In this document: positions 2,621-26,053 of the stretch, one piece after another
How the letters are laid out: each line of letters starts with the position of its first letter
How positions within the stretch are numbered: position 1 is the stretch's first letter
NCBI GenBank assembly: GCA_039186805.1
Contig: JBCCZW010000001.1
Location: 1 to 36,595 of the forward strand
Direction of reading: 5' to 3'
DNA from: Verrucomicrobiota bacterium
GTDB taxonomy: Bacteria > Verrucomicrobiota > Verrucomicrobiia > Opitutales > Opitutaceae
Length of the DNA stretch: 36,595 bases
Translations under genes and position numbers: made by a program
The notes under the pieces: generated by a model
The model's database searches: none
What the model was told of the DNA's origin: nothing
What the model saw: only the letters and a program-made list of their open reading frames with translations

Positions 2621-3844
2621 TCAACGCTCGCCTTCGTTGAAAATCGCGTAGGTTCCGCTTTTGCCGGCTACCGCGATATCCAAGCGTCCGTCTCCATTCA
2701 AATCGGCGGTATTAATCTGGAGCCCCGTACCTGCGCTTCCTTTCAATATCGTCTTACGTTCGAAGCTTAATTTGTCCTTGTCCCAGTTATAGTAATACAA
2801 GACCGGCTCTTCGTTGCCCCCGGGATCCTTGCCGTTGTGAGCGTAAACCCGCTTTCCGGTGATCAGCTCATCCTCGCCATCGCCATCGATGTCCGCCCAA
2901 TGGAGAACGTGAGGCTGAGAGAAACTATCGTCGATCAAATGCTCCTCCCACTGCAGCGTGCCATCCTCAGCCGGCTCCAGCTGCTCCCGCCAATACAATC
3001 CATAGTCATGACCGAGACCATAGATAAAATCGTTACGGCCATCGCCATTCATGTCCCTCACCAGCATCGGAACCGAAGCGTGCAAAGACCAATCCTCATG
3101 CAGCTTCCAAGGTCCCGCATCCACGCCTTCCTTCGGTTGCTCAAACCATCCTGATCGGAAAAGGATATCCGCCCTTCCATCCCCGTTCAGATCGCCAACG
3201 CCCAGTCCGTGACCGTTCTTCTTTAAACCGATCGTAATCTTGCTCAAACTCGGCACTTCCTTCAGTTCCTTTTTCATTCGCGGACCCTGCTGCACCACCA
3301 CCTCTCGCTCCTCAGTCGTAAACCTCCAGGCAAGAAAATCGTTTTCCTTGTAGTAAGAGTTAACGATCAATTCCGGGATTCCATCTCCATCTAAATCTCG
3401 CATTAACTCTGCTTCGTTGCGGGCCGCCCCCGTATCCTTCAGCAAGCGTTTCTCCCAAAGCAATCCGCGATCCAAAGTCTCGTCTCCAGGATTTCGATAC
3501 CAATGAACCTCCGACGTGAAGAAAGACATTGAGATCACATCGACCCAGCCATCGGCATCTACGTCATAAGGAAAATCTCCGTTGGAATGAACATAGCCTC
3601 TATTATCCTCGATGGCCCTCAAAGCCCTTGGCAGGTAATCCGGCCCTGCGTACCAATTCCGTCCTGCCACAATATCCAAAATCCCATCTCGATTTACATC
3701 GAAAATCGCCGAGCCTTCGTTGGCATCAATCGCTAAAAGCTTCGCGGAAAACCTAAGATCCGGCTCTCCTCCTTCGAGGGTCGATGAAAAGCTGATAGAG
3801 AGTAAACAAACGAATGAAATAGAAAACGGGATATTCATAAGCAA
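2621..3844 (-). CDS. secreted FG-GAP/VCBS-repeat beta-propeller protein
   Basis: Hydrophobic signal-like N-terminus (MLMNIPFSISFVCLLSISFS). Seven spaced D-x-[DN]-x-D-G-x-x-D repeats: DVNRDGILDIV, DVDADGWVDVI, DLDGDGIPELI, DLNGDGRADIL, DMNGDGRNDFI, DIDGDGEDELI, DLNGDGRLDIA. Confidence 0.8.
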   Translation of the reverse strand: MLMNIPFSISFVCLLSISFSSTLEGGEPDLRFSAKLLAIDANEGSAIFDVNRDGILDIVAGRNWYAGPDYLPRALRAIEDNRGYVHSNGDFPYDVDADGWVDVISMSFFTSEVHWYRNPGDETLDRGLLWEKRLLKDTGAARNEAELMRDLDGDGIPELIVNSYYKENDFLAWRFTTEEREVVVQQGPRMKKELKEVPSLSKITIGLKKNGHGLGVGDLNGDGRADILFRSGWFEQPKEGVDAGPWKLHEDWSLHASVPMLVRDMNGDGRNDFIYGLGHDYGLYWREQLEPAEDGTLQWEEHLIDDSFSQPHVLHWADIDGDGEDELITGKRVYAHNGKDPGGNEEPVLYYYNWDKDKLSFERKTILKGSAGTGLQINTADLNGDGRLDIAVAGKSGTYAIFNEGER

Positions 3845-4155
3845 GGGGTACGCTTACTAACTATTTCATGAATTTCGGCGAGATCCCTTTAAAATCCAAT
3901 TTTCACTTCAGTAGCCAAATCATCGACCCCGACCTTTCTGCGCCGCGGCCCCCTGCCCCTAAACGCATAATTTCACCCGCGCTTTCGTGAAATGGAAGGC
4001 TCGACCGCCGCACGAGGCCCATAAGCAACCCAAGCAAACGGACTGCTCCAGGCGAACCCGAACCTTGCACCCTTCTTCTTCTTAAACGAAAGCCTCGCGA
4101 TTGAGCCGAAACCCAACCCCAGCAGGCCAAAGCGAAATAAGAAGCTTACCTATCG

Positions 4156-5796
4156 CTAGGAATATTTATTCACCATGTATTCACCGATCCAATACCCCAC
4201 TGCCAAAATAGTCAGTGAAGGATTGAAACCCGCATTGGTCGGGAAGGTGCTGCCGTCGGCAACGAAGAGATTGTCGATATCGTGAACTTGTCCGTAGCGA
4301 TTCGTCACCGAGATACTCGGATCATCGCCCATGCGACAAGTGCCCACTTGATGCACGCCACTGCCCTGGCCTCTACCGCCCACATTCTGCCAAGTAGTGG
4401 TCGCTCCAGCTTCCTTCAGAATCTCTTCCGCCTTCTCGGCGAGGAATTTGCAATGCTTCCGGTCTAAGGGATGACGGGACCCGGACAGGCCAACCACCGG
4501 ACTTCCCCAAAAGTCCTTTTTTCCTTCATAGGCGATGACTCGCGAATGGAAATTTGGCATCTCTTGAATCGGTCCCAGCACCTGAGCGAACTTTCGGAAA
4601 TTCTCTCTCTGAAATTTCTTGTGCTCCAATCCCCATCGAGCTGCCTTGGGCGGTCTCATTTTCGAGAACTGATAAGGGAGCTTATAAAACTCATTCGCGA
4701 GCAATCCGCCCCCGATAATCCCTGGATTGTGGTGGTTGTAATCGCAGATCGCCAGGGTCGCGCCCGGCCCTGAAAAACGATGCACTTCATCTGGGAAGAA
4801 GCCATTCGCCCCCGTGTAAGCATGTCCCTGTAGATTCCGTCCTACCCAATCGTTATTGTTGCCAGCTCCGTCCGGAAACTTCTTGGACTTCGAGTTCAAC
4901 AAGAGACGAGCGGTCTCAGTCGCCGACGAAGCCACCACAACGATATCCGCCGTCTGGATACGCTCTACATTCTCCGCATCAAAGTACCTAACGCCGCGCG
5001 CATGCCCATCATCATCTACCATCACCTCAACGACCTGGCATCCGACTCTCAAGTCGCAGTTTCCAGATGCGATCGCTTTAGGAATCACCGTATTGTGCGT
5101 CCCATTCTTGGCGCTCACCGGGCAGGCATAACCCGCGCAAGTGCGATTGCGAATGCAGCCCGGTCGCCCATTATAGGGCACAGAATTCCTCGCCATTGGG
5201 ATTGAAAAAGGATTGAGACCCAAGCGCTTGCACGCTTCCGCCAAGACTTTACCGTCATCATTCTGCTCAAATGCCGGCATCGGGTAGCCCTTCCTGCGCG
5301 GAGGCGAAAAAGGATTCTCATCGCCATCGCCCGACACCCCAATCTCCCATTCGGCCTTTTCGTAATAGGGCTCTAGATCATCATAGGAGATCGGCCAATC
5401 CGCTAAGGTCGAACCTTCCACCTTGCCGTAGGTCGATTCCATTTTGAAATCTTCCTCCATAAAACGCCATGCCATTGCTCCGTAGCTCACCGTGCCCGAA
5501 CCTACGCAAGACGCGATATGAGAACTGTAACCATTCATTGGATACGACTTCATATCAGCTCCCTCGCCTTCGATTCGCACGCGAGGGTTTTTTTCTAAAT
5601 CCGGACCCATCGACCGTTTCATCGGTCCCCGCATTGAAGTCATTTCGTCATTAGAACCGACTCCATACCGCACCCATCGGCCGCGTTCCAGCAAAGCCAC
5701 TTGAAATCCGTTTGTCGCCAGTTCCTTGGCCACGACGCCCCCACCGGCGCCGGCGCCGACAACAACGACATCCACATGTTTATCCTTAGCACTCAT
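4156..5796 (-). CDS. GMC-family FAD-dependent oxidoreductase, large catalytic subunit (gluconate 2-dehydrogenase / glycoside dehydrogenase-like)
   Basis: N-terminal FAD Rossmann motif VDVVVVGAGAGGGVVAKELATNGFQVALLERG. C-terminal GMC-like blocks HQVGTCRMG and NLFVADGSTFPT. 546 aa with no signal peptide. Confidence 0.85.
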   Translation of the reverse strand: MSAKDKHVDVVVVGAGAGGGVVAKELATNGFQVALLERGRWVRYGVGSNDEMTSMRGPMKRSMGPDLEKNPRVRIEGEGADMKSYPMNGYSSHIASCVGSGTVSYGAMAWRFMEEDFKMESTYGKVEGSTLADWPISYDDLEPYYEKAEWEIGVSGDGDENPFSPPRRKGYPMPAFEQNDDGKVLAEACKRLGLNPFSIPMARNSVPYNGRPGCIRNRTCAGYACPVSAKNGTHNTVIPKAIASGNCDLRVGCQVVEVMVDDDGHARGVRYFDAENVERIQTADIVVVASSATETARLLLNSKSKKFPDGAGNNNDWVGRNLQGHAYTGANGFFPDEVHRFSGPGATLAICDYNHHNPGIIGGGLLANEFYKLPYQFSKMRPPKAARWGLEHKKFQRENFRKFAQVLGPIQEMPNFHSRVIAYEGKKDFWGSPVVGLSGSRHPLDRKHCKFLAEKAEEILKEAGATTTWQNVGGRGQGSGVHQVGTCRMGDDPSISVTNRYGQVHDIDNLFVADGSTFPTNAGFNPSLTILAVGYWIGEYMVNKYS

Positions 5797-5827
5797 GTAT
5801 TCAAAATTTGGTTTAGCTACGCCTATC

Positions 5828-6340
5828 CTAGATCTTCATCATAAAATGGCTGAGGTAATCCTTATTTCCTCCATGCCGCGGATCTCCATAGTAGGCCTGC
5901 ATCGTATGGTCTAAAAGCGTTCTAAAAAAGCGGCGTTGCATTGCTGAAGTCCAACTGGCGTGCGCCACCTCGCCTCCTTCAAGGGTCTTCAAATAGCTCA
6001 ACTGATCCACCTGTTTCAATGCGGCGAACCGTAGCCCAAGCTGCTCCTCGCAAGACGTATTCAAAACAGAAAGCTCCGCTCGATAATAGTCTAACTGGTC
6101 GGGATAGTGACCACGTGGTCCCAGTTGCTTATCGAAAAAATAGACCACCCCGGCATCCGTCGCTCCCCCAAACTCGTCTTCGGGAATCAGCTGCTCGCAC
6201 AAAGCGATAATCGTCTCAGCCTCCAAATCAGTTAAAACCTGATAGGGCCCTAGAGAGGGCCTCACCTGTCCCAACAAAAACGGCGCTCCCGCAAGAGACA
6301 CGGAAAAGGCCTTTAGAAAGTTCCTTCGATCAGTCGTCAT
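5828..6340 (-). CDS. gluconate 2-dehydrogenase subunit 3-family small subunit with a twin-arginine leader
   Basis: 170 aa. Tat motif MTTDRRNFLKAFSVSLAGAPFLL. It sits 31 nt upstream of the GMC gene on the same strand, the typical two-gene arrangement. Confidence 0.75.
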   Translation of the reverse strand: MTTDRRNFLKAFSVSLAGAPFLLGQVRPSLGPYQVLTDLEAETIIALCEQLIPEDEFGGATDAGVVYFFDKQLGPRGHYPDQLDYYRAELSVLNTSCEEQLGLRFAALKQVDQLSYLKTLEGGEVAHASWTSAMQRRFFRTLLDHTMQAYYGDPRHGGNKDYLSHFMMKI

Positions 6341-6732: not shown

Positions 6733-7641
6733 TTACCCAATTCGCTCGCTCACGTCATCCACCGGAGTGTATCCCAAAAAACCTCTTACCTCTTCCAGAC
6801 TCCACTTCATACCAGAGTTCGCGCTCATCCCATTCACGATCACCGCTCTGCTGGGCCAACCATCGCAGTCAGCCTCCTGAGCCCGATCGAAGAGTCCCTG
6901 AAAGTCCCGCTGCGATAACCAAAAGCTCCGCATCCAAGTCAGGTCCCTCATCGCCTCCCTATCAGCGCTAAACTTGTTCATCCGCCCGGCGATCATCTCC
7001 GGAAAACCTTGCCCCGGCTTGCACGCTCCGATTCGAACGGAAACAAACGACAGTCTCTCGCTACCCGTCGCCGCGCAACTCTGACACAAACGCTCCCCCA
7101 TCAACTTCGTCCATGCATAAGTCGTCGAGTTCTGATTCGGTCCCGCCTCCCAAATAAGCGTACCCGGAGCCGGATCTAAAGACGTCGTCAGTCCGCCGAC
7201 CCCAATCGAATCCGCCAAAGGACTATCTTTATAGCCACCCATCACATGATTAGACGAGGCAAAGATAAAACGCTTCATCGAAGCGGACCGCAACGCAGCC
7301 GTCATCACATTCAAAGTAATATCCATGCTCTTCGAAGCCTGGATCGGAGTTTGGCTCGGAAACGGATTGACCGCAGCAAAGTGAATCAAACTCTCCGAGT
7401 CATCGATGCAAGCGGCCCAATCCTCTTCGTAGCCCGTCAGATCGGCCTTCAGAAAAACTACCTCGGGGCGACTTTCGTTCTCGCATCGCAATCTCTCGAT
7501 TAGCTCTTTCTGCTCTTCATCGGGCTCTCTCACATCAAGCGCATAGATCCGACTCCGACGACCCATCCGAGCCATATGGCTCAAGTAGTTGAAACCTAAA
7601 TACCCTAGGGCTCCCGTGATGCATGTCCGGTCGATTTCCAT
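6733..7641 (-). CDS. NAD(P)-dependent epimerase/dehydratase-family (extended SDR) protein
   Basis: N-terminal Rossmann motif ITGALGYLG and a YAWTK (YxxxK) catalytic motif. 302 aa. Confidence 0.7.
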   Translation of the reverse strand: MEIDRTCITGALGYLGFNYLSHMARMGRRSRIYALDVREPDEEQKELIERLRCENESRPEVVFLKADLTGYEEDWAACIDDSESLIHFAAVNPFPSQTPIQASKSMDITLNVMTAALRSASMKRFIFASSNHVMGGYKDSPLADSIGVGGLTTSLDPAPGTLIWEAGPNQNSTTYAWTKLMGERLCQSCAATGSERLSFVSVRIGACKPGQGFPEMIAGRMNKFSADREAMRDLTWMRSFWLSQRDFQGLFDRAQEADCDGWPSRAVIVNGMSANSGMKWSLEEVRGFLGYTPVDDVSERIG

Positions 7642-7964: not shown

Positions 7965-8978
7965 TCATAGCTTCCTCCAATCCCAGACTACGCCCCCGTA
8001 GCTTTCATCGCGATTCCTGAGAGCCTCGTAAACTTGGCTGCAATTCTCAGGCGATTCGACATGCGAGATCAGCGCGTCGACCTTCAGTTTACCGTTTCGC
8101 AGCAGATCCAGAAAGATGCGAATATTCCGCTCCAAGGAATGCTTCCCGGCATCGCTATCATAAATCGGATACCGCCATTCATGAGCGCCCTTCATCGTGA
8201 CGCAACCGCTCCCCCAGAGGTGGATCTGCCTCAAGATATCCGCCCCACCCTCTTTGAGATCCCCACGCGGAGTGCCCAAGAGAATCGTCTCCCCGTTTTT
8301 TCCGAGGAGCTTGTTCAAGGGAGCTATCAGACTGGGATTACCCGTCGCCTCGATAGCCGTTTCGCACATCCGGCCTTCAGTGATTTCCTCCACCTTCTGA
8401 AAAAGATCTTCCTTCAATGGATTGACCCTGTGCTCTATCCCGCATTCCGCAGCCATCTCAAGTCGAGCTTCAGACACATCAACGCCGATCACCCTGGCGC
8501 CGGACAAGGCGCAAAACTGCGCGGCGAGATTCCCGACCAGGCCCAAACCCTGCACAACCACCGTATCCCCAAGTTCGATACTGCTTACTCGGGGAGCCGT
8601 AAATGCGACCTGAGCTATTCGAGCCATCGCCAACTTCACCGGATCGATATCCTCGGGCAGTTTCACTATCAATTGCGAGCCGCTCGCCAACGCATGCGAT
8701 GCATGACTTGCATAACTAAAGACCAAATCCCCTTCTTCGCACTGGGTCACCTCGCTGCCTCGCGCGATCACGCGGCCCACATTGCCATAACCCGGAATCG
8801 CCGGATGAGGCGCCCAAGATTCGTTTCCACCTAAAACGGCCAGCTCAGTACCCGCACTGAGTACGCTCGTCACTGACTCCACCGCAATCTGCTTAGGCTG
8901 CAGTTCTTCAAGATCGATCTCCTGCTCTATAAGTTCAATCGTTTCGGGGCTTTTAAACTGGATCGCTCGTCGTCTCAT
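7965..8978 (-). CDS. medium-chain dehydrogenase/reductase (MDR) family oxidoreductase, apparently lacking the catalytic-zinc ligands
   Basis: NAD(P) site VVVQGLGLVGNLAAQFCALSGARVIGVD. The position of the Zn-ADH GHE signature reads GYG (IPGYGNVGRVIARGSEV). 337 aa. Confidence 0.75.
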   Translation of the reverse strand: MRRRAIQFKSPETIELIEQEIDLEELQPKQIAVESVTSVLSAGTELAVLGGNESWAPHPAIPGYGNVGRVIARGSEVTQCEEGDLVFSYASHASHALASGSQLIVKLPEDIDPVKLAMARIAQVAFTAPRVSSIELGDTVVVQGLGLVGNLAAQFCALSGARVIGVDVSEARLEMAAECGIEHRVNPLKEDLFQKVEEITEGRMCETAIEATGNPSLIAPLNKLLGKNGETILLGTPRGDLKEGGADILRQIHLWGSGCVTMKGAHEWRYPIYDSDAGKHSLERNIRIFLDLLRNGKLKVDALISHVESPENCSQVYEALRNRDESYGGVVWDWRKL

Positions 8979-9154: not shown

Positions 9155-9805
9155 CTAAACCAAACCCTCTCGAATCGCCTTCGCGACCGCTCCGGTATTC
9201 GTGTTAACGTGCAGTTTATTATACAAACTCCTAATATGATTCGTTACGGTGTGCGTGCTGATACTCAATGCATCTGCGATCTCTTTGGTCAGCATACCGT
9301 CTGCCATTTGCTTGAGCACCTCTTTTTCGCGAGGACTTAAACCGTAGTCTTCGCCTCCCGCAACGCCCGTCTTTTCGAAACGATCGAATAGACCCAGGAC
9401 GCGCTGAGCCACAGCAGTATCCATCGGCGCTCCTCCTTCAGCCGCCTGCCGCACCGCCTTCACCACCGAATCCGAAGTTTCGGATTTCAACAAGTACCCA
9501 TTCGCCCCCGCGCACACCGCTTTGAAGATTTTGTCAGGATCGTTGAATACAGTCAGGATCACCACATTACAGCTCGGGATCCGCTCGCGAAACTCCTCCA
9601 GCGCCTCGAGTCCGTTCATTCCAGGTAAACCGACATCCAAGAGGATGACGTCGGGCGATTCGCTCTCGTCAATCGCCTTCAAAGCCCATTCTGCTCGGTC
9701 GAAATTCCCCGCGCAATTCACGCCATTCGCCGCATCCAAAGCTCTCGCTAAACCGCGACGATAAATTTCATTGTCCTCAATCAGCCAAACTTGAATTTCC
9801 TTCAT
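9155..9805 (-). CDS. NarL/LuxR-family response regulator (REC + HTH)
   Basis: REC domain with DVILLDVGLPGMNG. C-terminal LuxR HTH LSPREKEVLKQMADGMLTKEIADALSISTHTVTNHIRSLYNKL. It lies 13 nt downstream of the kinase gene. Confidence 0.9.
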   Translation of the reverse strand: MKEIQVWLIEDNEIYRRGLARALDAANGVNCAGNFDRAEWALKAIDESESPDVILLDVGLPGMNGLEALEEFRERIPSCNVVILTVFNDPDKIFKAVCAGANGYLLKSETSDSVVKAVRQAAEGGAPMDTAVAQRVLGLFDRFEKTGVAGGEDYGLSPREKEVLKQMADGMLTKEIADALSISTHTVTNHIRSLYNKLHVNTNTGAVAKAIREGLV

Positions 9806-9818
9806 TATAAATTCCTTT

Positions 9819-11882
9819 CTACTTTCTTCTCAATCGAATGGGCGCCTCAAAAATCACCTGAGTTCCCTCCCCCAGTTGACTCTCTATTCGCACCGAACCG
9901 CCAATACTATTCGCCCTTGTCGTTAGATTTCCAATACCATGTCCAAGCTTGGCGTCCTCTAACTTAAAACCCTTACCATCATCGCGCACCTCAAAGGTAA
10001 AGCGCTTTTCATCGCCCCCCAAGCTGCAAAAGACCGTCTTCGCATCCGCATGCTTAATCACATTCGTCAGACACTCCTTGTAGGAAAATAGAACCTGCCT
10101 TCGAAATTCGAAATCCAACAACTGCTCCGGCGCCTCATTGAAATGAAACTCGTGCTCCATGTGTCCCAAACCGGAGGGAGCCAACTGACGCATGTGGGCG
10201 ACCAATTTCGCTCGCGAAGATTCATTGTTATCCAATAACCAGACGATATCTCGCATGGCATGATTCGCCTCCCCGCTCGCTCTGCAAATGATATCGATAT
10301 CCTCGCGGACTGCCGGCGCAAGATCCGGATCGCTCAGCAAACTCTCGCTCAACAATCGCATCCCACCCAAGCGACTCCCCAAGTCGTCATGCAGGTCCCG
10401 CGATATACGGTCCCTGAGTTCTCGCTGCTTCGCCAAAAGCATACGCCTTCGTCTCACGAGATTGAATACAAACAAAATCGCCAACGTCCCAACTGTCGCC
10501 GTACTCGAAGCAAGCAAGCCCGCGACGGTGCTCTCAGCCAGCCTCTGGTTTTCAGCCTCCAGTTCGCCAATCTCAAGATCGAGCGCCTTTCTCTCCTCCA
10601 GATCATCGAGCCACTCGTCCAACTCGATCAAACGATTCTGACTACTGAAGCCATCCACGAGAAAAGCCTCATTCCAATAGCGACTGAAGGGCTCCCGGAT
10701 GCCGCCTATATCATAATACCTTACCTTTGATCCCATCGCCACATTCACGCCGGATTCGTACACCTGCATTTCGGACAAAGCCAACGAGTAAGAATTATTT
10801 GTAATGTGCCACAATTCCACCGCTTCCAGCCGCACGTATCTCGCTGGCTGGCCATCGCCCGGAAGAATAACGGGATTGTCGCCGGGGTTCGGGAACCACG
10901 CTTTCGTTCGATCCGCAATCACTCTGTAGTCCTTGAAATTACGATCGTTCGATGCGAGCACCCTGAAACGCCGCGGAAACCCATGACCATATTGACTCGG
11001 AGCATCCAAAGGCTGAGTTGGCAACAACCTCACCTCATCGATCCGCGCCGCCTCGCTCAATTCAACCTGCACCCACTTCGGCGACTGCGGCGATGGCGCC
11101 GGACGAGCCAGATATCCATTACTCGCGCTCGGCTCAGGCCTCACTGGTAAGCCTAAATCCGTCTGCCCGTCCATTAGACTCGCGCTGCTCCAATCAGGCA
11201 AAGAAGTGAACGAGTCCGCCTCGACGAAAGCGCCCAACGACAAATTCTGGTTTCCTGATAAAACCATGATTTCGCCCAAAGCCGTCAACACGCGTCCATC
11301 CGGGCGTTTCCAATGCTCAAGCACCTGCAGCTTCAAATAGCGCGTCGAAAGGCCCGGCGTAAGCACTTGCACCGGGTATTCCGGGCGCGCTTTCTCATCC
11401 GCATCCGAGGACTTATAAACGAGAGTTGCATTCCCGAAATTCGCGCTCTCCGACGCTTCTAATTGAAAGCGCGGAGGAAAGCCATAACCCCCGATCGTCT
11501 CTCCTTGAAACACCGTGCTAATCGGGAAGAAGGCAATGCGGTCCACCGACCATAAACGTCCGAGATCAATCAAAATTTCCAGCGGATCCTCTACGTCTTC
11601 TTGAAACCGGCTGTGAAAGCCCAAGCTCTCGCCATGTCTTCCCGGAGCCAAGGGAGCCAGCTGGTCGCGCCTCGACCTCAACTGCTTCAAGGTCCGCTCA
11701 TTCTCCTGAATCGATCCCCTCACATTCCGCGCGATTCGATAAGAAAGCGACCCGTCCGGCGACTCCTCTGCGCGCAGTTCTCCCCCAAGCCAGAGGGGCA
11801 GCATCGCAAGGAAACCGAATACTATTCGAAGAGGGTAGATGCTAAAAACCTCTCCTCCAACACGCCATTTTGTCAATGGCAT
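9819..11882 (-). CDS. sensor histidine kinase (HisKA_3 / NarL class) with a tandem discoidin (F5/8 type C, CBM32-like) periplasmic sensor region
   Basis: N-terminal TM segment and a ~410-aa periplasmic region with two internally homologous modules (GYGFPPRFQLEAS...TRYLKLQVLEHW...ALGEIMVL versus GHGFPRRFRVLAS...ARYVRLEAVELW...ALSEMQVY). Second TM segment GLLASSTATVGTLAILFVFNLV, H-box RDLHDDLG, and an ATPase G-box GHGIGNL...GEGTQV. Confidence 0.85.
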   Translation of the reverse strand: MPLTKWRVGGEVFSIYPLRIVFGFLAMLPLWLGGELRAEESPDGSLSYRIARNVRGSIQENERTLKQLRSRRDQLAPLAPGRHGESLGFHSRFQEDVEDPLEILIDLGRLWSVDRIAFFPISTVFQGETIGGYGFPPRFQLEASESANFGNATLVYKSSDADEKARPEYPVQVLTPGLSTRYLKLQVLEHWKRPDGRVLTALGEIMVLSGNQNLSLGAFVEADSFTSLPDWSSASLMDGQTDLGLPVRPEPSASNGYLARPAPSPQSPKWVQVELSEAARIDEVRLLPTQPLDAPSQYGHGFPRRFRVLASNDRNFKDYRVIADRTKAWFPNPGDNPVILPGDGQPARYVRLEAVELWHITNNSYSLALSEMQVYESGVNVAMGSKVRYYDIGGIREPFSRYWNEAFLVDGFSSQNRLIELDEWLDDLEERKALDLEIGELEAENQRLAESTVAGLLASSTATVGTLAILFVFNLVRRRRMLLAKQRELRDRISRDLHDDLGSRLGGMRLLSESLLSDPDLAPAVREDIDIICRASGEANHAMRDIVWLLDNNESSRAKLVAHMRQLAPSGLGHMEHEFHFNEAPEQLLDFEFRRQVLFSYKECLTNVIKHADAKTVFCSLGGDEKRFTFEVRDDGKGFKLEDAKLGHGIGNLTTRANSIGGSVRIESQLGEGTQVIFEAPIRLRRK

Positions 11883-11961: not shown

Positions 11962-13050
11962 ATGACCTCGGAATCTCCCACTACTCAAACTCAACCTGAA
12001 GGTTACTTTACGCTCGAAAAGCGCCAGAACCGATGGTGGCTCATCACCCCCGAAGGAAAGCCCTTCTTCTCGCTCGGTCTCAACCACATAGATCCCGCAA
12101 CGCTCCGCTACCCGGAAAACATCCACCTCTGGCAGGATAAATATCGCGGAAGCAATCTAGTCTGGATCGAAGAATCAGTCGCTCCCAATCTCAAATCCTG
12201 GGGCTTCAACTCAGTCGGCTGGGTCCAAGAAGTCACCGTCCGCCAGTGGCGCCATTCGCGAGCCTTCACCGTCGACGAATACCGGGCGCTCGACATGCCC
12301 TACTGCCACCTGCTCCCCTTCACCGAATCGCACCAATGGGAGAAGCACACCGTCCACTACGACTTCCGCAGCGATGAATGGAAAGAATGGGTCGACTACG
12401 TCGTCCGCTCTCACTGCGCCGAACTCGCAGACGATCCCAACCTAATCGGATACTTCTACAGCGACTGCCCCGCCTGGATACACGACCTCAGCCAAAACAA
12501 GTGGAGAGGCCCTATCTTCGATCCCAAGATGTTGGATACGGAAGCTGGCCGCAAAGAGCTCTCTGAACTCGCCCACGGCTACTATAAGACCATCCACGAC
12601 GCCATTCGTCGCTACGACAAGCATCATCTCCTTCTCGGCGACCGCTACGAGAACAACATGCCTATCGCTGACGAAGTGGTAAGCGCAGCCCTGCCCTTCA
12701 TCGACGTTCTGTCCTTCCAGGACTTCAATAAGCCCGTTGAACGGCTCGCCAGCTGGTATCAGAAAACCGGCAAGCCCGTTCTTCTCGCCGACTCCGCTCG
12801 CGTCAAATGGCAAACCAAACCCGGCGAATTCACGCCCAACGACGGTGATTGGTACGCGGAAACGCTTGCCGGACTCTTCGATAATCCTGGCTGCGTTGGC
12901 TTTCATCTCTGCGGCGCCTACCAACGCAACAAAGCTCGCCGTTACGGTCTCTTAGACGAGCTGGAAAACCCCGACTCAGAACACGTCGATAAAATGACGG
13001 CCGCCAACCAACGGGTCACTAAAACGATCCAAGCCCTACCCTCCGGGTAG
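11962..13050 (+). CDS. P1: leaderless member of an unassigned TIM-barrel glycosidase-like family (WWL[VI]TPEG family)
   Basis: 362 aa, ATG start with in-frame stops upstream. By eye about four-fifths identical to P2 but without its Tat leader. Blocks WWLITPEGKPFFSLGLNH, SWGFNSVGW, DDPNLIGYFYSDCP, HHLLLGDRY, IDVLSFQDF, GKPVLLADS and GFHLCGAY. Confidence 0.85.
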   Translation: MTSESPTTQTQPEGYFTLEKRQNRWWLITPEGKPFFSLGLNHIDPATLRYPENIHLWQDKYRGSNLVWIEESVAPNLKSWGFNSVGWVQEVTVRQWRHSRAFTVDEYRALDMPYCHLLPFTESHQWEKHTVHYDFRSDEWKEWVDYVVRSHCAELADDPNLIGYFYSDCPAWIHDLSQNKWRGPIFDPKMLDTEAGRKELSELAHGYYKTIHDAIRRYDKHHLLLGDRYENNMPIADEVVSAALPFIDVLSFQDFNKPVERLASWYQKTGKPVLLADSARVKWQTKPGEFTPNDGDWYAETLAGLFDNPGCVGFHLCGAYQRNKARRYGLLDELENPDSEHVDKMTAANQRVTKTIQALPSG

Positions 13051-13162: not shown

Positions 13163-13714
13163 ATGACTACCCCGGAAAACGATGAGCCGTCGCCCAATAA
13201 CGGCGATCTGGCGATGGAGATCACCTCCATTCAACCACGTCTATACGGTTTCATACTCAAGCGACTGGCCGATCGAGAGTACACGCTCGAAGTCCTCCAG
13301 CGCACCAATTTAGTCCTCTGCCGCAAAGCGAACGAATTTCAAAAAGGTTCCAGCTTCACCGCTTGGGCTTTCACGATCGCCAAGTTTCAAATCATGGCCT
13401 GGCGAAAGGATGAAGGCCGCAACCGGCTTGTTTTCACCGAAGACGTCTACGCCCTCCTCGATCGTTCTTCAGCAGATGAAGCAGACTCGGTCGATCGACG
13501 CATCCCCGTCCTCAAAGGCTGCCTCAATCGCCTGCGTCAGGACGAGAGAGAACTCATCCAGCAACGCTACCGCGATGGATTGAGCATAGAAGCGCTCGCC
13601 GGCAATCTCCAGTATTCCATCGACGCCATCGGTATGCGGCTCCTTCGCATCCGCAAAAAGCTCGGGACCTGCATCAGACTCAATCTGAATACGGAGGGTC
13701 AACATGAGCGCTGA
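13163..13714 (+). CDS. ECF-type sigma-70 family RNA polymerase sigma factor
   Basis: 183 aa. Region-2-like LYGFILKRLADREYTLEVLQRTNLVL...FTAWAFTIAKFQIMAWRK and region-4-like ERELIQQRYRDGLSIEALAGNLQYSIDAIGMRLLRIRKKL. Its stop overlaps the start of the next gene by 11 nt. Confidence 0.85.
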   Translation: MTTPENDEPSPNNGDLAMEITSIQPRLYGFILKRLADREYTLEVLQRTNLVLCRKANEFQKGSSFTAWAFTIAKFQIMAWRKDEGRNRLVFTEDVYALLDRSSADEADSVDRRIPVLKGCLNRLRQDERELIQQRYRDGLSIEALAGNLQYSIDAIGMRLLRIRKKLGTCIRLNLNTEGQHER

Positions 13715-15173
13715 TCCCGATACGCTTGAGGAGCTCGAGCATCTTGTATCCAAAATGTTGGAGCAAACGCTTTCGCAAAAAGAGAAAGCGCGACTCAACG
13801 AACTCCTTCTCGATTCAAAAGCCGCTCGCGCGCTCTACCACGAGATCCTCGACAATCACGAAGCCCTTTGCTCCATCTACCCCGGCGAGGTCTTCAACTC
13901 AGCGCTGGAAACTGAAAACGAGATCATAAGACCTGAACCCCCGAGGGTGACAGCCCCTCTGGCGAGGTTCCCCTCTCTGCCTATGATCGCCAGCGCGGCC
14001 GCGATCGCAATCGCTTTCATAACGGCCTTCGCTTTTCTCAATCCAAAGGAAGACGCGCAAAACACCGCCAGCAACAGTAACCAATCTTCGGATACGGTCG
14101 CCCGTCTCATCGCCAGCGTCGATGCGGTCTGGCAAGACGCTGCCCCCGCCCCCGGTTCCAGCCTCCCACCTGGGAGCTATTCGCTCGAGCAGGGATCGGC
14201 CGATCTTAAATTCGACGAGGGAGCCCGCATCACCCTCCGCGGACCGGCTCGCTTCAACCTGAAAAGCGCCAATCACCTGCACCTGCTATCCGGGAAAATG
14301 GTCGCCTATATTCCCGAAGATGCCCTCGGCTTCGCGGTGACCACGCCGCAAAGCGAGATCGTCGACCTGGGAACGGAATTCGGACTGGATGTCGTCGCAG
14401 ACGGGCGGACCGACATACACGTTATGGATGGTCTCGTTGAGGTGTATAGCCGTAATGCTTCTTCCGATACGGAAAAAATCCTTCAGACTGGCATCAAGAT
14501 AGAAGAAGGGCAAGCGCGTCGCCTCGAGAGCGCAGACGCCTTGCGCCTACAAGACATTCCCTTCTTCACCAGAGAGCAAATCCTGGGAAACCGCCGCTTC
14601 GAAAATCTGGGACTCAGCTTGCTTCGGGGAAGCGTCAAAGTGCGAAACGATTTCGCCACCCAAGACATATACGAAACGATTTCAGAGCAAAGTCGAATCG
14701 AGGTCATCCCCGAGAGTGAAGGAGTGCTGCTAGAACAAGACGCGGTCGTCACCTTCACTGAACCGGGGAAATACCGATTCTTCGGTCCCACAGGTAAGAC
14801 CATCCCAGCCGGTACTAAGGTAGACAGCTTCCTCCTCCACTTCCGCTCGGATGAAATGAAGATCATTCGCGGCGTCATCAAATTCGACCGTCCCATTCTA
14901 GGCTTGATCTGCGAGTCAGATCAACTCGCCGCAACCGACGCGCTCGTCGGCCTAGCCAGCGTCGATTACCCCAGCGCATCCTACTCCTTCCGTAGCCTAG
15001 AACCCCATAACTACAAGCAGGTAAGTAACCTCCCAGCCTACGATACAGGAGGTGGATTGTCCGCGGATGAAGTCACCCTTTCCCAAGATATGACCACCCT
15101 AGGTCTTCACGTAAACGTCATCCCAAACGAAGGCATGGACCAACTCAGAGTCCTCGTCCTCAGCAAAGACTAA
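13704..15173 (+). CDS. FecR-family transmembrane anti-sigma factor with an extended periplasmic C-terminal region
   Basis: Translationally coupled to the sigma gene. Single TM segment (FPSLPMIASAAAIAIAFITAFAFL, aa ~92-115). FecR-like block DLKFDEGARITLRGPARFNL...GKMVAYIPEDALGFAVTTPQSEIVDLGTEFGLDV...HVMDGLVEVY. About 200 further residues belong to no family I recognise. Confidence 0.8.
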   Translation: MSADPDTLEELEHLVSKMLEQTLSQKEKARLNELLLDSKAARALYHEILDNHEALCSIYPGEVFNSALETENEIIRPEPPRVTAPLARFPSLPMIASAAAIAIAFITAFAFLNPKEDAQNTASNSNQSSDTVARLIASVDAVWQDAAPAPGSSLPPGSYSLEQGSADLKFDEGARITLRGPARFNLKSANHLHLLSGKMVAYIPEDALGFAVTTPQSEIVDLGTEFGLDVVADGRTDIHVMDGLVEVYSRNASSDTEKILQTGIKIEEGQARRLESADALRLQDIPFFTREQILGNRRFENLGLSLLRGSVKVRNDFATQDIYETISEQSRIEVIPESEGVLLEQDAVVTFTEPGKYRFFGPTGKTIPAGTKVDSFLLHFRSDEMKIIRGVIKFDRPILGLICESDQLAATDALVGLASVDYPSASYSFRSLEPHNYKQVSNLPAYDTGGGLSADEVTLSQDMTTLGLHVNVIPNEGMDQLRVLVLSKD

Positions 15174-15195: not shown

Positions 15196-16362
15196 ATGAA
15201 TCCAGTAAATCGAAGACACTTCATCAAAGGTAGCCTGGCTGCCGGGGCCGGGGCCGCTCTCACTCCGCTATCCCACCTCGCCGCCGCAAATACACAGAAA
15301 ACCACTCAGTCGTCTCCCACCGGCTTCTTCACCTTAGACAATCGGAAGGACCACTGGTGGCTCATCACGCCAGAAGGAAAACCCTTCTTTACCTTAGGCA
15401 TCAACCATATCGACCCTGCCAGCCTTCGGTATCCAGAAAACATACACATCTGGAAAAACAAGTACGGCGGCAGCGCGATCCAATGGATCGAAGAATCGGT
15501 CGCTCCCAACCTCAAATCCTGGGGTTTCAACACGGTAGGCTGGGTCCAAGAAGTCACCGTTCCTCGGTGGCAACACTCCCGTCCTTTCACTGTCGACGAA
15601 TACCGGGCTCTCGACATGCCCTACTGCCACCTCATCCCTTTTACCGAATCGCACCAATGGGAAAAGCACACGGTTCATTACGACTTCCGCAGCAAAGACT
15701 GGGAAGAATGGGTCGACTACACAACCCGGTCGCATTGCGGCGAACTCAGCGAAGATCCTAACCTCATAGGCTACTTCTACAGCGACTGCCCGACCTGGGC
15801 CCACGATCGGCCCTTCAATCAGTGGAAAGGACCTATGTTCGATCCAGAGCGACTGAAGTCCGAAGCCGGTCGCAAAGAACTCAGAGAACTCGCTCACGCT
15901 TATTATAAAACTACCCACGACGCGATCCGACGCTACGACAAGCATCACCTTATCCTCGGCGACCGCTATGAAGCCAACGCTCCCATTCCAATGGAAGTCG
16001 TGGAACCCGCGCTCCCCTACATCGACGTCCTTTCTTTCCAAGACTTTCGCGATCCCATCAAGCACCTTGATGAATGGTACAAGAAGACCGGCAAGCCTGT
16101 CCTCCTCGCAGACGCCGCGGGAATCGGCGGTAAAATGGTCGACGGGTTCAAGCCCAACAACGGCCCCTGGTATTCAGATACCTTGCGCGCTCTCCACAAA
16201 AACCCGGGCTGCATCGGCTTCCACCTCTGCGGCGCCTATCAACGCAATAAAGCCCGCAGACGCGGACTCCTCGACGAACTCGAAAATCCCGACACCGAAC
16301 ACGTCGATATCATGACTCAAGCCAACCAAGACATCACCGCTTGGATGGCCAAGGAATTCTGA
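15196..16362 (+). CDS. P2: Tat-leader member of the unassigned glycosidase-like family
   Basis: 388 aa. Twin-arginine leader MNPVNRRHFIKGSLAAGAGAALTPLSHLAAA. The mature part is collinear with P1. It starts 22 nt after the anti-sigma stop. Confidence 0.85.
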   Translation: MNPVNRRHFIKGSLAAGAGAALTPLSHLAAANTQKTTQSSPTGFFTLDNRKDHWWLITPEGKPFFTLGINHIDPASLRYPENIHIWKNKYGGSAIQWIEESVAPNLKSWGFNTVGWVQEVTVPRWQHSRPFTVDEYRALDMPYCHLIPFTESHQWEKHTVHYDFRSKDWEEWVDYTTRSHCGELSEDPNLIGYFYSDCPTWAHDRPFNQWKGPMFDPERLKSEAGRKELRELAHAYYKTTHDAIRRYDKHHLILGDRYEANAPIPMEVVEPALPYIDVLSFQDFRDPIKHLDEWYKKTGKPVLLADAAGIGGKMVDGFKPNNGPWYSDTLRALHKNPGCIGFHLCGAYQRNKARRRGLLDELENPDTEHVDIMTQANQDITAWMAKEF

Positions 16363-16468: not shown

Positions 16469-19072
16469 TTGGCGGGACCGCTCGTCCTTTTCGGAAACGC
16501 AGAACCTTTGCCAACCGCGATCCCCGAATTTATCGAACAACACTGCATCGACTGCCATGACGACGTAGAGATGAAGGGCAACCTCGACCTTGATGCCCTG
16601 CTGTTCGAGCCACTTACTCCCGAAAACAGAGCAAGCTGGATAAATGTTTTCGATGCCGCGCAGTCTGACGAAATGCCCCCGGCCAAGAAGAAACGTCCTG
16701 ACAGCGAACACCTGCAGACTTTTTTGAATTCTCTTTCGGGTAGCATCAAAGCCTCTGAACACGAACGCCTGGAAACAAATGGTCGGGCTAGCAATAGACG
16801 CTTAAACCGCTATGAATTTGAAAATTCATTACGCGACCTACTCTCTCTGCCCAATCTAGAAATCAGAGATAACTTGCCTGAAGATGGTACCGCCCATGGA
16901 TTCAACAAACTCAATAAGGCCCTAGACATTTCGCATGTGCAAATGGCCCGCTTTATGGAATCCGCCGAGCAGGCACTTAATCAGGCTGTCATACCATCGG
17001 TCAAAGCGCCGCAAACGTTCAAAGAGAAGTACTATACCTGGCAACAACCAGGCTTCATCAAAATCGCGCCCCCAACGCTTCGATTGACTTTCCCCATTGT
17101 CGGCCTGGAGCTGCAACCTGACCTTATCGGCGGTCGCGACAGAGTCGCGGAACAGTGGATCATCCCAGATTTACCGGGCGCGTCAAAACCCGAGCGGGTC
17201 GAAGACGAAGCCGTGGTGATGCTTACGAGCACTTACGAGCCATCGGAAATACAATTCAACAAATTCCGAGCGGAAGTATCAGGACGTTATATATTACGTT
17301 TCTCCGGCTATACGGTTTGGATGAACAACGATTTTTCCGAGGTATCCAAGGGCCGTCGCAATGAACCAATAGCAATCTATGCCGACTCGCCCCCACGTAT
17401 ATTACGACCTTTGGGGAAATTCGACTTTGAACCCGACGCCACCGTACACAGTCTCGATGTTTGGCTAAAAGCGGGAGAAACGATTCGCCCCGACGCCACC
17501 CGATTGGTAAGGCCCAGAGGGACCTCCAAAAACCCGCTTCAAGAAGCCGACGGCATGCCAGGCGTCGCCTTCCAATGGATGGAAGTGGAAGGCCCGATTT
17601 TCGACCAATGGCCTACCGCGGGTCACAAACTGCTTTTTGCCGATTTACCGCTCACGGAGACCATCGATGATACCGTCGTCGAAGTGATCGAAAAAGCCGA
17701 TCCCGGCGACCCTGCCAACGACGCCGGTCAAGTCTTGCCCGAGCACCTAAACCGGAAGAAGAATATCATATCAGTATCCTCTCCAACTCCCCAAAAAGAT
17801 GCCGAGGCATTGCTGCGTCGCTTTATGGAAAGGGCCTACCGCAGACCGGTACAAGAGAGCGAAGTGCAGCCAATCCTTCAATTAGTAAAAGGCGCTTTAA
17901 AGAACAACCACAGCTTCAAAGCGGCTATGATTTCAGGCTATGTGGCCACTCTTGTCTCGCCGGGTTACCTCTATATAAAGCCTAATAGGGGAGAACTTGA
18001 TAGTCACTCCCTCGCAGAACGGCTTTCATTTTTCCTCTGGAATTCACCGCCCGACGCGCAGCTGCTCAAGCTCGCCTCCTCCGGCGACTTATTGGACCAC
18101 CAGACGTTGAATCAACAAGTAGATCGTTTGCTCGACGATCCTCGCTCGCGGCGATTTAGCGATAGCTTTCTCGACTACTGGCTGGACCTGCGTCATATGA
18201 ATGCATCGACTCCAGATGAAGAATTGTACCCCGATTATCAGCTCAATGATAACTTAATAGAATTAGCGCAAACGGAAACCCAACTGTACTTCTATCATCT
18301 GATCGAGAACAATCTCTCCGCCAAGAATCTGGTCGACTCCGATTTCCTTATAATTAATGAGCGCCTAGCTAAGCACTACGATATTCCCAATGTATCAGGG
18401 GTCCATTTTCGTAAGGTCCCATTGCCCGAAAACAATGCGCGAGGAGGACTCATGACCCAGGCCAGCGTTCTAAAAGTCACTGCTAACGGAACGCTCACCT
18501 CGCCTATATTAAGAGGAGCCTGGATCATGGAACGCATGCTGGGCTATCACGCGGCGCCCCCTCCTGTCGTTGAGGTCCCTGACCCTGATATTCGCGGCGC
18601 CACGACGATCAGAGAACAACTGGCCTTACACCGATCAGATACATCCTGTAACTCCTGTCACCAAAAGATCGATCCGGTCGGGTTCGCCTTAGAGAACTTC
18701 GACGTCATGGGAGCCTGGCGAGACTTCTACCGCAACACGGCAGATGGCGAGGGTCCGAAAGCCAAGGGAATCGGACATAACGGCAAACCCTTCCTCTTCC
18801 GCAAGGGCTTGCCGGTGGACGCTACAGGGAAATTATATAGAGGAGATTCCTTCTCAGATGTTCGCGACTTAAAAAAGATGCTCACCGAGAGGGACACGCA
18901 ACTCGCTGAGAATATCACCGAGCAACTATTGACCTACGCCACCGGCGCTCCCGTCCATTTCTCCGATCGCCAGAGCATAGCGAAAATATTACAGCGAAGC
19001 CGCGCGTCTGACTACGGACTCCGCGACCTCATCAAACATATCGTTAGTAGCGACTTATTCCTCAATAGATAA
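16469..19072 (+). CDS. DUF1592/DUF1588/DUF1585-family protein with two CxxCH heme-c motifs (cassette A); no recognisable signal peptide
   Basis: 867 aa. CIDCH at 16544-16558 and CNSCH at 18647-18661. Family blocks [72 protein letters not shown] and [16 protein letters not shown]. The only in-frame start after the upstream stop is TTG at 16469. Confidence 0.8.
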
Positions 19073-22095: not shown

Positions 22096-22189
22096 GCAAA
22101 TTTCCAATTTAACTCGTCAGAGGTTCTCCAAGCGGAACCCAGCATCAGCATACGACCCTCTTTTGTCTGCCATAGGGTCGAATCTCAGT

Positions 22190-24535: not shown

Positions 24536-26053
24536 ATGAAAGATTACTTTAACCCGCTTTTCAGTATCGCAAAGCTAAGCTTGGCGACACTACTTGGCTC
24601 AGCCGCCATTAATGCTCAATCCGGAGAGCTCGATCAGTATGGCGGCTTCATGGATATTAAGGGCGAGAAAACCGGTTTCTTCCACACCGAAAAGATTGAC
24701 GGTCGCTGGTGGTTGGTGACTCCCGAAGGCAATGCCTTCTGGGGAATCGGCATGAGTCACCCCGTAACGGGCTGGACCGAGGGCGCAGTCACTTTCGTAT
24801 ACAACGGCGATCAAGAGGCCTGGTTTAAGGATACCGTAAAGAGGATGAAGGACCTGGGCTACAACTGCGTGTGGAGCGGCCCCTACTGTCCCGAACGAGC
24901 CCGCTCAGGCTTTATAGACAAGCGATTGGCGGAAAAAGTATTCAAGGATGCCGAGATCCCGTATGGCTACCCCGTGGCTCTCATCAAGCACGCGGTCGAA
25001 CTCGAACCGGGAGAAAAACGACCTGATGTATTCAGTAATGAATACAAGAAGTTCGTGCAAGGCGAAGTCGAACAGCATGTGATTCCCAATAAGGATGATC
25101 CCTGGATAATCGGATATTACTACGGCTTCGGTTCTTTCGACCGCGACTGGTTGTGGATCAATGACCATCTGGAGAAAAAAGGCAGCCCCGGCCGCGCGCG
25201 GCTGATGTCCGTACTCGAAGATCGCTATAATGGAAACATCAGCAAATTGAACCAGGTCTACGGAACTGCCTTCGAATCCTTCCGAGCCCTGAAAAACGAA
25301 GGTATGATCTCCTATCCTAATTGGGTCACCTTGAGCAAGGCGGGGCGCGCCAAGATTCCCAATACGCCCGAAGGGCAACGTATCTTTGAGGACGCTGAAG
25401 CCTTGCTAGGCGAAATCGTAGAAAAAGTCCATGCCTTGGCCTTCACTGAAATTCGCAAGCACGACACCAATCACATGATTCTTGGCTGCTATGTGAAAGA
25501 GGCAACCTATACGGAGAAGATCTGGCGTAGGATCGATCCCTACATCGACGTTTTAGCGCCGCAACATGTGAGCGAAGTCTTTCCAATTGGTCCCATCGTG
25601 GAAGCCCTCGATAAGCCCGCTATCATTAGCGACCAACCCTACGGCAACGTCTACAATAATCACAATCTTGTCCAGCGCGGCGCCCATGGCCCGGTCCCCG
25701 ACCACGTCGATCGGCACTTGCTCTACGACCTTTTAACTGAACGCATATCCGTAGATCCCGACGTGACCGGCGCCAATATGTGCGCTTGCCTATTCGACCA
25801 ATCCCATTGGGAGAAAGCCTACGAAAGGGGTCAGCCCGGCTTTTGGACCGTCGACGGCGAACCCAGACCCCACCTCATAAGGACCGTTCAACGCTCAAAC
25901 TCGCTCCTTTTTGAAAGAGTCAAAAAAAGTCACGATGAAGAGACGGTCCAAAACCTGGATGAGAAATTCCATCATATCCTGAGCCTCTACCGCGAAGTCA
26001 TGGACCATCGAAAGGAGTTCCTAAGAAGAGTACCCGCCATCGTCTATCCATGA
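24536..26053 (+). CDS. P4: divergent secreted member of the unassigned glycosidase-like family
   Basis: 505 aa with a signal-like N-terminus. Blocks RWWLVTPEGNAFWGIGMSH, DLGYNCVW, DDPWIIGYYYGFGSFD, NHMILGCY, IDVLAPQHV, KPAIISDQP and GANMCAC. Confidence 0.75.
   Translation: MKDYFNPLFSIAKLSLATLLGSAAINAQSGELDQYGGFMDIKGEKTGFFHTEKIDGRWWLVTPEGNAFWGIGMSHPVTGWTEGAVTFVYNGDQEAWFKDTVKRMKDLGYNCVWSGPYCPERARSGFIDKRLAEKVFKDAEIPYGYPVALIKHAVELEPGEKRPDVFSNEYKKFVQGEVEQHVIPNKDDPWIIGYYYGFGSFDRDWLWINDHLEKKGSPGRARLMSVLEDRYNGNISKLNQVYGTAFESFRALKNEGMISYPNWVTLSKAGRAKIPNTPEGQRIFEDAEALLGEIVEKVHALAFTEIRKHDTNHMILGCYVKEATYTEKIWRRIDPYIDVLAPQHVSEVFPIGPIVEALDKPAIISDQPYGNVYNNHNLVQRGAHGPVPDHVDRHLLYDLLTERISVDPDVTGANMCACLFDQSHWEKAYERGQPGFWTVDGEPRPHLIRTVQRSNSLLFERVKKSHDEETVQNLDEKFHHILSLYREVMDHRKEFLRRVPAIVYP

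Follow-up and report, generated by a model that had tools for sequence, protein, structure and literature searches.

The window analyzed here is a whole metagenomic contig of 36,595 bp from a Verrucomicrobiota bacterium. It contains a pair of adjacent genes that encode a flavoprotein of the GMC fold and a small subunit with a twin-arginine translocation (Tat) signal. The pair probably represents a periplasmic sugar or oligosaccharide dehydrogenase of the flavin adenine dinucleotide (FAD)-dependent complex family, in which the dedicated cytochrome subunit would have been lost and the electron acceptor would be encoded elsewhere. Judged from sequence comparison, this reading is given a probability of roughly 0.7. 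Within the large family of exported flavin/iron-sulfur sugar dehydrogenases the pair is unremarkable, and it is distinctive only by the recent loss of its cytochrome. Most comparisons below are made with Burkholderia cepacia FAD-glucose dehydrogenase (BcGDH, an alpha-gamma-beta complex, 6a2u) and Gluconobacter japonicus fructose dehydrogenase (FDH, 7w2j).

Gene pair and export signal

Both open reading frames (ORFs) are on the minus strand, at the coordinates given by an earlier reading of the sequence, referred to here as the initial annotation, which had not named the strand. The features of the pair are as follows, with the basis for each in brackets.

6311-6331, minus strand: twin-arginine codons D-R-R-N-F-L-K, amino acids (aa) 4-10 of the small subunit (translation)
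5828-6340, minus strand: small subunit, 170 aa, Gluconate_2-dh3/gamma-type partner (PF13618, E 2.6e-24; Tat signal; alignments)
5797-5827, minus strand: spacer of 31 nt from the small-subunit stop to the GMC start (sequence)
4156-5796, minus strand: catalytic GMC-fold FAD subunit, 546 aa, no signal peptide (Pfam and PDB matches)
5122-5157, minus strand: Cys214-x5-Cys220-x4-Cys225, predicted 3Fe-4S ligands (alignment to FDH and BcGDH)
4351-4353, minus strand: His482, catalytic His of the GMC His/Asn pair (alignment to FDH and BcGDH)
4222-4224, minus strand: Asn525, partner of His482, in a conserved G(F/L)NP motif (aligns with the Asn of FDH and BcGDH)
3845-4155, minus strand: non-coding gap of 311 nt 3' of the GMC gene, with no cytochrome remnant (tblastn, E<=10)

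The initial annotation had described a leaderless flavoprotein and a 170-aa partner carrying RRNFLK, and both descriptions were confirmed. The GMC protein has no leader because its ORF is already maximal upstream and the Rossmann strand runs from residue 8 of its N-terminus (MSAKDKHVDVVVVGAGAGGG). The N-terminus of the small subunit (MTTDRRNFLKAFSVSLAGAPFLLG) is a canonical twin-arginine signal, with DRRNFLK at residues 4-10. In an alignment of 22 orthologues, R6 and F8 of this motif are invariant and R5 is conserved in at least 90% of sequences. Judged by position, the small-subunit and GMC genes are one transcription unit. The order small subunit to GMC, with the two genes adjacent or separated by one gene, was found in 26 of 28 genome and metagenome loci. 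The single intervening gene is a sulfatase gene inside the operon in two of these loci (L001:6496-7989 and L004:3780-5267) and a cytochrome gene in L003. The exceptions to this order are L006 and L005, and the contig of the latter begins 65 nt ahead of the GMC gene.

Both GMC domains are present in the flavoprotein (PF05199, E 6e-22; PF00732, E 3.5e-15), and these matches together with the PDB alignments place the N-terminal FAD-binding GxGxxG motif on a GMC fold. The Pfam and TIGRFAM matches for the pair, and for two genes discussed below (the GH50-like gene P3 and the gene at the right edge), are far beyond chance. NCBIfam has no specific model for the GMC protein or the small subunit. The flavoprotein aligns over its full length with the FDH large subunit (7w2j_A) and the FAD-glucose dehydrogenase alpha subunit (6a2u_B), both at E ~5e-50. 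The match to common GMC oxidases (those for choline, cholesterol and pyranose, and the glycoside oxidase 7qf8) is confined to the final 60 residues, at E 1e-4 to 1e-7. The initial annotation had seen a flavoprotein that hitch-hikes through Tat on its partner, and the Pfam and PDB matches, the Tat motif and the lack of a leader all support a dehydrogenase of this type in the FDH/FAD-glucose dehydrogenase/gluconate 2-dehydrogenase family.

The motif GCIRNRTCAGYACP of the flavoprotein aligns with PQCCGNNNCMPICP of FDH and BcGDH. In BcGDH, Cys212, Cys218 and Cys222 ligate a surface 3Fe-4S cluster through which electrons travel from FAD to the cytochrome subunit (PMC6719666). From the aligned cysteines, a 3Fe-4S cluster is predicted in the window GMC subunit as well. 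Cys214, Cys220, Cys225 and His482 are invariant across 28-29 orthologues. Ser104 occupies the position of the FAD-binding His105 of BcGDH, both here and in most of the clade, and the FAD of the window enzyme is probably non-covalent.

The missing cytochrome subunit

The cytochrome survey covered 34 related loci, and in 22 of them a cytochrome gene of ~300-360 aa lies beside the GMC gene. The encoded proteins have an N-terminal transmembrane helix and 7-9 CxxCH motifs, mostly nine. Their first 150 residues are NrfH-like (NapC/NirT family), with matches to TIGR03153 at E 1e-10 to 6e-14 that are below the curated cut-off, and the N-terminus also matches PDB 2j7a NrfH and PF03264. In loci with the cytochrome gene downstream of the GMC gene, the distance to its start is no more than ~70 nt; in L003 the cytochrome gene lies between the small-subunit and GMC genes. 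Examples of the NrfH-like multiheme cytochrome gene beside the GMC gene are the following.

L001:9670-10698
L002:9702-10766
L003:6870-7922
L004:6996-8012
L005:1721-2767
L029:12237-13277
L036:2049-3077

This NrfH-like protein appears to be an undescribed third subunit, distinct from the triheme class-I cytochrome of the proteobacterial complexes. The closest GMC relatives of the window (L034 at 82% identity, L005 at 79%, L029 at 75% and L036 at 74%) all have the cytochrome. In the window, a six-frame scan for CxxCH found only two DUF1592 proteins (16469-19072 and 28218-30590), and tblastn searches of the window with five orthologous cytochromes gave no match. The initial annotation had reported that the usual third (cytochrome c) subunit is missing from the operon. 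The absence itself stands, for the operon and for the rest of the contig, but the lost subunit is the NrfH-like multiheme protein and not a proteobacterial triheme cytochrome.

In loci that carry the cytochrome, the small subunit has a conserved C-terminal tail, (D/E)YPxxxG(Q/R)N(R/V)Y, of which L024 has a variant. The tail is present at all 21 loci where the small subunit and the cytochrome are both visible, and at none of the seven loci with an established absence of the cytochrome (the window, L008, L011, L012, L019, L020 and L022). Ignoring phylogeny, this association has a Fisher's exact p of ~8e-7. Tail-less forms occur in at least three separate lineages, namely Flavobacteriia, Balneolaceae and the group of the window, and the cytochrome-less Flavobacteriia and Balneolaceae show 5-10 kb of cytochrome-free flank on most contigs. 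The window small subunit also lacks a lipobox Cys. Such a Cys follows the Tat signal in cytochrome-bearing relatives from the Planctomycetes-Verrucomicrobia-Chlamydiae (PVC) group (P0123 and P0124), as well as in the majority of the clade's Bacteroidota members. Three loci (L030, L031 and L035) resemble the window in having a 170-aa small subunit without tail or lipobox (65% identity), next to a flavoprotein of 79% identity. In L035, 127 nt of non-coding DNA follow the GMC stop. The absence of the cytochrome thus looks like a real, recent and lineage-specific loss, in which the tail and the lipid anchor of the small subunit were lost as well. The gamma subunit of BcGDH has a C-terminal loop that lies packed on the 3Fe-4S cluster, at the expected docking site of the cytochrome (PMC6719666). 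By analogy, it is reasonable to infer that the tail of the small subunit would dock the cytochrome.

Points that weigh against the assignment

Several observations weigh against this reading of the pair. First, a single metagenomic contig of 36.6 kb is visible, and the cytochrome may be encoded elsewhere in the genome. Secondly, the small subunit has no PDB match at E<=1, either by phmmer or with a profile of 22 sequences, and its AlphaFold model has no Foldseek match at E<=0.001, including to BcGDH gamma and FdhS. The model is all-helical with five helices and a mean predicted local distance difference test (pLDDT) score of 79.8. Since there is no PDB or fold match, the small-subunit assignment rests on PF13618, the Tat motif and the conserved adjacency. 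Third, fused proteins that join the small module to the GMC protein and have no twin-arginine signal occur in Deinococcus and Paenibacillus.

L032:4464-6623: fused PF13618-like module and flavoprotein, no twin-arginine signal (Deinococcus aetherius plasmid)
L033:4449-6581: fused PF13618-like module and flavoprotein, no twin-arginine signal (Paenibacillus cellulositrophicus plasmid)

These fused proteins are 710-719 aa long, carry the module at the N-terminus and, at 45% identity, are the nearest outgroup in a tblastn search of plasmids. In the same search the annotated plasmid-borne proteobacterial relatives were all at or below 35% identity. Because such fusions have no signal, the small module belongs to the structure of the enzyme and does not serve solely as a Tat escort. 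Lastly, no column in the alignment of catalytic subunits separates cytochrome-less from cytochrome-bearing forms.

Proposed mechanism

In the mechanism that we propose, the flavoprotein would fold in the cytoplasm, where it would take up non-covalent FAD along with a 3Fe-4S cluster. The folded flavoprotein would then bind the small subunit and, by homology, leave through the Tat system on the RRNFLK signal. In the periplasm, the enzyme would oxidize a sugar, released from a sulfated galactan-type polysaccharide of algae, at one of its hydroxyls. The hint to this substrate is the conserved regulon, which consists of the discoidin kinase and LuxR regulator, the GH50-like genes, a GH10-like gene and sulfatases. 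Electrons would exit FAD to the 3Fe-4S cluster. In most relatives they would pass to the membrane-anchored NrfH-like multiheme cytochrome and from there presumably to the quinone pool. Because its lineage lost the cytochrome gene, the window enzyme would have to use an acceptor whose gene lies elsewhere, and the likeliest candidate is a soluble c-type cytochrome of the periplasm, as predicted for Campylobacter jejuni.

A broader proposal can be made tentatively, at well below even odds. The clade may represent an undescribed but widespread three-subunit dehydrogenase, made up of a lipoprotein small subunit, an FAD/3Fe-4S subunit and an NrfH-like quinone-reducing cytochrome, which, in Bacteroidales and Verrucomicrobiota, would feed electrons from sulfated-glycan sugars into the (mena)quinone pool. 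The tail would dock the cytochrome over the Fe-S cluster, and at least three lineages, including that of the window, would independently have shed both tail and cytochrome in favor of a soluble acceptor. If this were true, the window pair would be a natural "beta-less" variant with its Fe-S cluster exposed to a new partner.

Alternative explanations

The initial annotation had proposed a glycoside 3-dehydrogenase of the type of LacABC or glucoside 3-dehydrogenase (G3DH), with the DUF1080 domain of P3 cleaving the 3-keto products and the DUF1592 proteins accepting the electrons. This route appears unlikely, although several of its elements are sound. The window flavoprotein shares its enzyme family with G3DH and LacA, and in Caulobacter and some Bacteroidetes the LacABC genes have DUF1080 genes in their vicinity (PMC9007349). 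DUF1080 proteins have been shown to be 3-keto-glucoside 1,2-lyases and hydratases (bioRxiv 10.1101/2024.03.25.586180). The C-terminal domain of P3 (22163-24439) is indeed DUF1080, as annotated (PF06439, E 3.4e-20, aa 484-755; 23612-24427, plus strand, by Pfam). The best hint comes from the fused Deinococcus relative of 45% identity, which lies between a GH3 gene and two sugar-phosphate isomerase/epimerase genes plus a Gfo/Idh/MocA gene. A minority of the related loci have AP_endonuc_2 or Gfo/Idh/MocA genes close to the pair, with AP_endonuc_2 in only two to three.

However, the conserved context does not support a link to DUF1080. The domain in P3 is the only one in the window, and it lies 16 kb from the pair, on the opposite strand and beyond both the two-component system and a sigma/anti-sigma pair. 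The orthologue of P3 in L029, a syntenic contig of Puniceicoccaceae (Verrucomicrobiota), is 456 aa long and lacks the domain. A jackhmmer search seeded with the window DUF1080 found none in the retrieved flanks (10 kb, or less on short contigs) of 31 related loci, and DUF1080 was not among the listed top 25 families in two Pfam scans of 139 neighboring genes. The proposed link to the DUF1592 proteins fares no better. The locus does encode these CxxCH proteins, as had been noted from the sequence, and the six-frame scan recovered both. Each contains a PSCyt1 motif plus one further CxxCH, and a DUF1552 gene accompanies each of them. They lie 10-24 kb from the dehydrogenase, on the other strand and behind two regulatory systems, and neither L029 nor any cytochrome-less relative, the Flavobacteriia and Balneolaceae loci included, has a DUF1592/DUF1552 pair. 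The gene at the right edge (35295 to the end of the window) was correctly assigned to a family that usually ends in a cytochrome c domain. By a TIGR02604 match that passes the curated cut-off (E 2.4e-52), it encodes the N-terminal part of a "PVC-type heme-binding CxxCH protein," and the heme domain would fall beyond the contig. The DUF1592 and right-edge proteins are real cytochrome-domain proteins, but nothing connects them with the dehydrogenase.

Characterized members of the family oxidize C1, C2, C3 or C5 (FAD-glucose dehydrogenase, gluconate 2-dehydrogenase, G3DH and FDH). The oxidized position therefore cannot be read from homology of ~30-35% identity. GapMind reportedly uses a criterion of at least 40% identity to LacA. 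For the window enzyme, C3 oxidation or oxidative glycoside cleavage is possible, but the conserved context does not favor it.

A less probable explanation keeps the complex at three subunits and moves the gene for the NrfH-like 7-9-heme cytochrome elsewhere in the genome. The retained 3Fe-4S cysteines, which imply a protein electron acceptor, and the limited view of the genome (36.6 kb) would both fit. However, the cytochrome gene adjoins the GMC gene in 22 of 22 cytochrome-bearing loci. Both the tail, which accompanies the cytochrome without exception, and the lipobox are missing in the window, L030, L031 and L035. The Flavobacteriia and Balneolaceae, with their cytochrome-free flanks, are cytochrome-less and tail-less too. 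Relocation is thus quite improbable, and loss of the subunit is preferred.

The weakest alternative, an oxidase that passes FAD electrons straight to O2 or to a small-molecule quinone like the soluble GMC oxidases, can draw on the many GMC enzymes that are oxidases and on the occurrence of cytochrome-less variants in what are, as general knowledge, usually aerobic lineages (Flavobacteriaceae, Cryomorphaceae and Balneolaceae), but it is very improbable, since the three Fe-S cysteines are invariant in all cytochrome-less forms and no catalytic-subunit residue separates the two groups, both of which argue for a protein acceptor encoded elsewhere and not O2. The characterized members of the subfamily are also dehydrogenases (PMC6719666).

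Comparison with known systems

The window pair shares with BcGDH and FDH a leaderless GMC-fold FAD subunit and a separate small Tat-signal subunit encoded adjacently. It differs from them in several ways. First, it lacks the triheme class-I cytochrome c subunit. Secondly, it has Ser104 in place of the FAD-binding His105 of BcGDH. Third, the cysteine spacing is C-x5-C-x4-C, whereas that of BcGDH and FDH is C-x5-C-x3-C. In addition, the window has no equivalent of BcGDH Cys213, which forms a disulfide to the gamma subunit, and neither sequence nor fold comparison detects a match of its small subunit to BcGDH gamma or FdhS.

A second known system is the gluconate dehydrogenase of C. jejuni, in which cj0414 and cj0415 are co-transcribed without a cytochrome subunit (PMC4178425). 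Cj0414 and Cj0415 are predicted to be periplasmic and to donate to a soluble periplasmic cytochrome c (PMC4178425; PMC6604965). By gene arrangement the window pair is alike, with a PF13618-type small subunit, a GMC flavoprotein and no dedicated cytochrome. A Tat arrangement of two subunits and no cytochrome is thus already known in kind. In C. jejuni the enzyme is used to respire free gluconate, whereas the window pair lies in a polysaccharide-degradation regulon and its nearest relatives have a 7-9-heme cytochrome. That the window enzyme might be a gluconate 2-dehydrogenase proper is hinted at only by the family name of the small subunit (Pfam, JGI), and the context of GH50-like and GH10-like genes, sulfatases and a glycan-sensing kinase does not suggest free gluconate.

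The third comparison, drawn by family, is with LacABC of Caulobacter crescentus and the glucoside 3-dehydrogenases of Halomonas and Agrobacterium, which share the superfamily and the subunit logic. LacABC is tied to glycoside catabolism and often lies near DUF1080 genes (PMC9007349), whereas in the window clade the DUF1080 association is not conserved. LacABC also requires its cytochrome component, and the window has none.

Locus context

The other annotated genes of the window are listed below, with the strand and the basis where these were recorded.

2621-3844, minus strand: secreted FG-GAP/VCBS repeat protein, downstream of the pair (Pfam)
6733-7641, minus strand: short-chain dehydrogenase/reductase (SDR)/epimerase-like gene, leaderless, NAD(P)-type (Pfam, NCBIfam)
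7965-8978, minus strand: zinc alcohol dehydrogenase (Zn-ADH)-like gene, leaderless, NAD(P)-type (Pfam, NCBIfam)
9155-9805, minus strand: LuxR-type response regulator (Pfam)
9819-11882, minus strand: HisKA_3 kinase with discoidin (F5/8 type C) sensor domain (Pfam)
11962-13050: GH50-like paralogue (distant similarity)
15196-16362: GH50-like paralogue (distant similarity)
22163-24439: GH50-like paralogue, P3 (distant similarity)
24536-26053: GH50-like paralogue (distant similarity)
31926-33485: GH50-like paralogue (distant similarity)

The kinase/regulator pair upstream of the dehydrogenase is kept in L029, L030 and L031 at 62-82% identity, and in the window lineage the dehydrogenase is under this glycan-sensing two-component system. 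The SDR and Zn-ADH genes sit between the regulator and the small-subunit gene. They are specific to this contig, being absent from that position in L029, L030 and L031, and their products could process the oxidized sugar in the cytoplasm. At the same junction L029 has a Y1 transposase (L029:9248-9637), and L030 and L031 have nothing. The FG-GAP protein was considered as a functional partner and rejected; it has no homologue in 28 loci (L001-L028) or in L029-L031 and is probably unrelated.

The synteny of the window with L029, which also has sulfatases, extends to the following genes and identities.

L029 discoidin-domain HisKA_3 kinase: 62% identity to the window
L029 LuxR-type regulator: 79% identity to the window
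L029 small subunit: 57% identity to the window
L029 flavoprotein: 75% identity to the window
L029 389-aa protein: 73-75% identity to the window genes at 11962 and 15196
L029 P3 orthologue: 65% identity to the N-terminal 457 aa of P3 (aa 13-469)
L029 GH10-like gene: 39% identity to the window

In L030, the string of kinase, regulator, small-subunit and GMC genes is accompanied by two sulfatases that are 84-85% identical to those of the window. The five GH50-like paralogues resemble GH50 beta-agarases, the best match being that of P3 to 5z6p (E 3e-15). Their mutual identity is ~22-25%, and apart from PF06439 in P3 they match no Pfam family. This verrucomicrobial locus probably targets a sulfated galactan-type (algal) polysaccharide. 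One of the paralogues (15196-16362) carries a Tat signal of its own (NRRHFIKGSLAAGAGA). Directly 5' of this gene and of the first DUF1592/DUF1552 pair, at 13163-15173, are genes for an extracytoplasmic function (ECF)-type sigma factor and a FecR-like anti-sigma factor. This block has no counterpart in L029.

Apart from the dehydrogenase genes themselves, no gene is conserved throughout the related loci. The most frequent neighbor family is that of the sulfatases, present in eight of the 28 related loci that were clustered (L001-L028). For these reasons, the pair is regarded as a mobile module that has repeatedly been recruited to glycan loci, often those for sulfated glycans. In cytochrome-less marine Flavobacteriia, a Tat-signal Gfo/Idh/MocA gene is divergent from the small-subunit gene (L011:28-1107, L012:8223-9302 and L022:8287-9366).

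Two ORFs of the window, 33005-35119 and 30227-31885, overlap their upstream neighbors by several hundred bases. Their true starts are probably downstream, because the sulfatase domain of the former begins at aa 220 and the DUF1552 domain of the latter at aa 177. Positions 1-1900 contain only ORFs of 100-117 aa, with no Pfam-recognizable gene, tRNA or Rfam match. Rfam and tRNA scans of the whole window found nothing, promoter and terminator scans of the window did no better than on shuffled sequence, and the base composition of the window shows no island.

Distribution and significance of the family

Relatives of the GMC protein number at least 7,797 at E<=1e-10 in a word-indexed search. An exhaustive HMMER search of 1.84 billion representatives gave 954 clusters at 50% identity for the subfamily (E<=1e-30). 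Relatives with 63-68% identity occur in Tannerellaceae, Prolixibacteraceae, Draconibacterium and other Bacteroidota. Source annotations of the flavoprotein read only "GMC family oxidoreductase" or "choline dehydrogenase-like flavoprotein," and those of the partner read "gluconate 2-dehydrogenase subunit 3 family protein" or "gamma chain." The window pair belongs to a clade from Bacteroidota, Verrucomicrobiota, Gemmatimonadota and Acidobacteriota that combines the small subunit, the GMC protein and the NrfH-like cytochrome. Identity of the clade to the window is 54-82% for the GMC protein and 31-65% for the small subunit. The gene order and the frequent association with sulfatases are common to both; the window lineage differs in lacking the cytochrome, the small-subunit tail and the lipobox Cys. 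A literature search on this clade (GMC with multiheme cytochrome, Bacteroidetes or sulfatase) returned nothing specific.

Biosensors based on direct electron transfer make use of periplasmic FAD/3Fe-4S dehydrogenases from this family. To our knowledge, almost all of the characterized members are from Proteobacteria. The present analysis points to a very large Bacteroidota/PVC clade that is wired into polysaccharide-utilization loci, often with sulfatases. Its electron output is an NrfH-like multiheme subunit that has repeatedly been lost together with the tail of the small subunit. The window adds one cytochrome-less example, which, set against cytochrome-bearing relatives of 79-82% identity, is a natural experiment on electron output. 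If its substrate were identified, an oxidative, respiration-linked step would be added to models of marine sulfated-glycan degradation.

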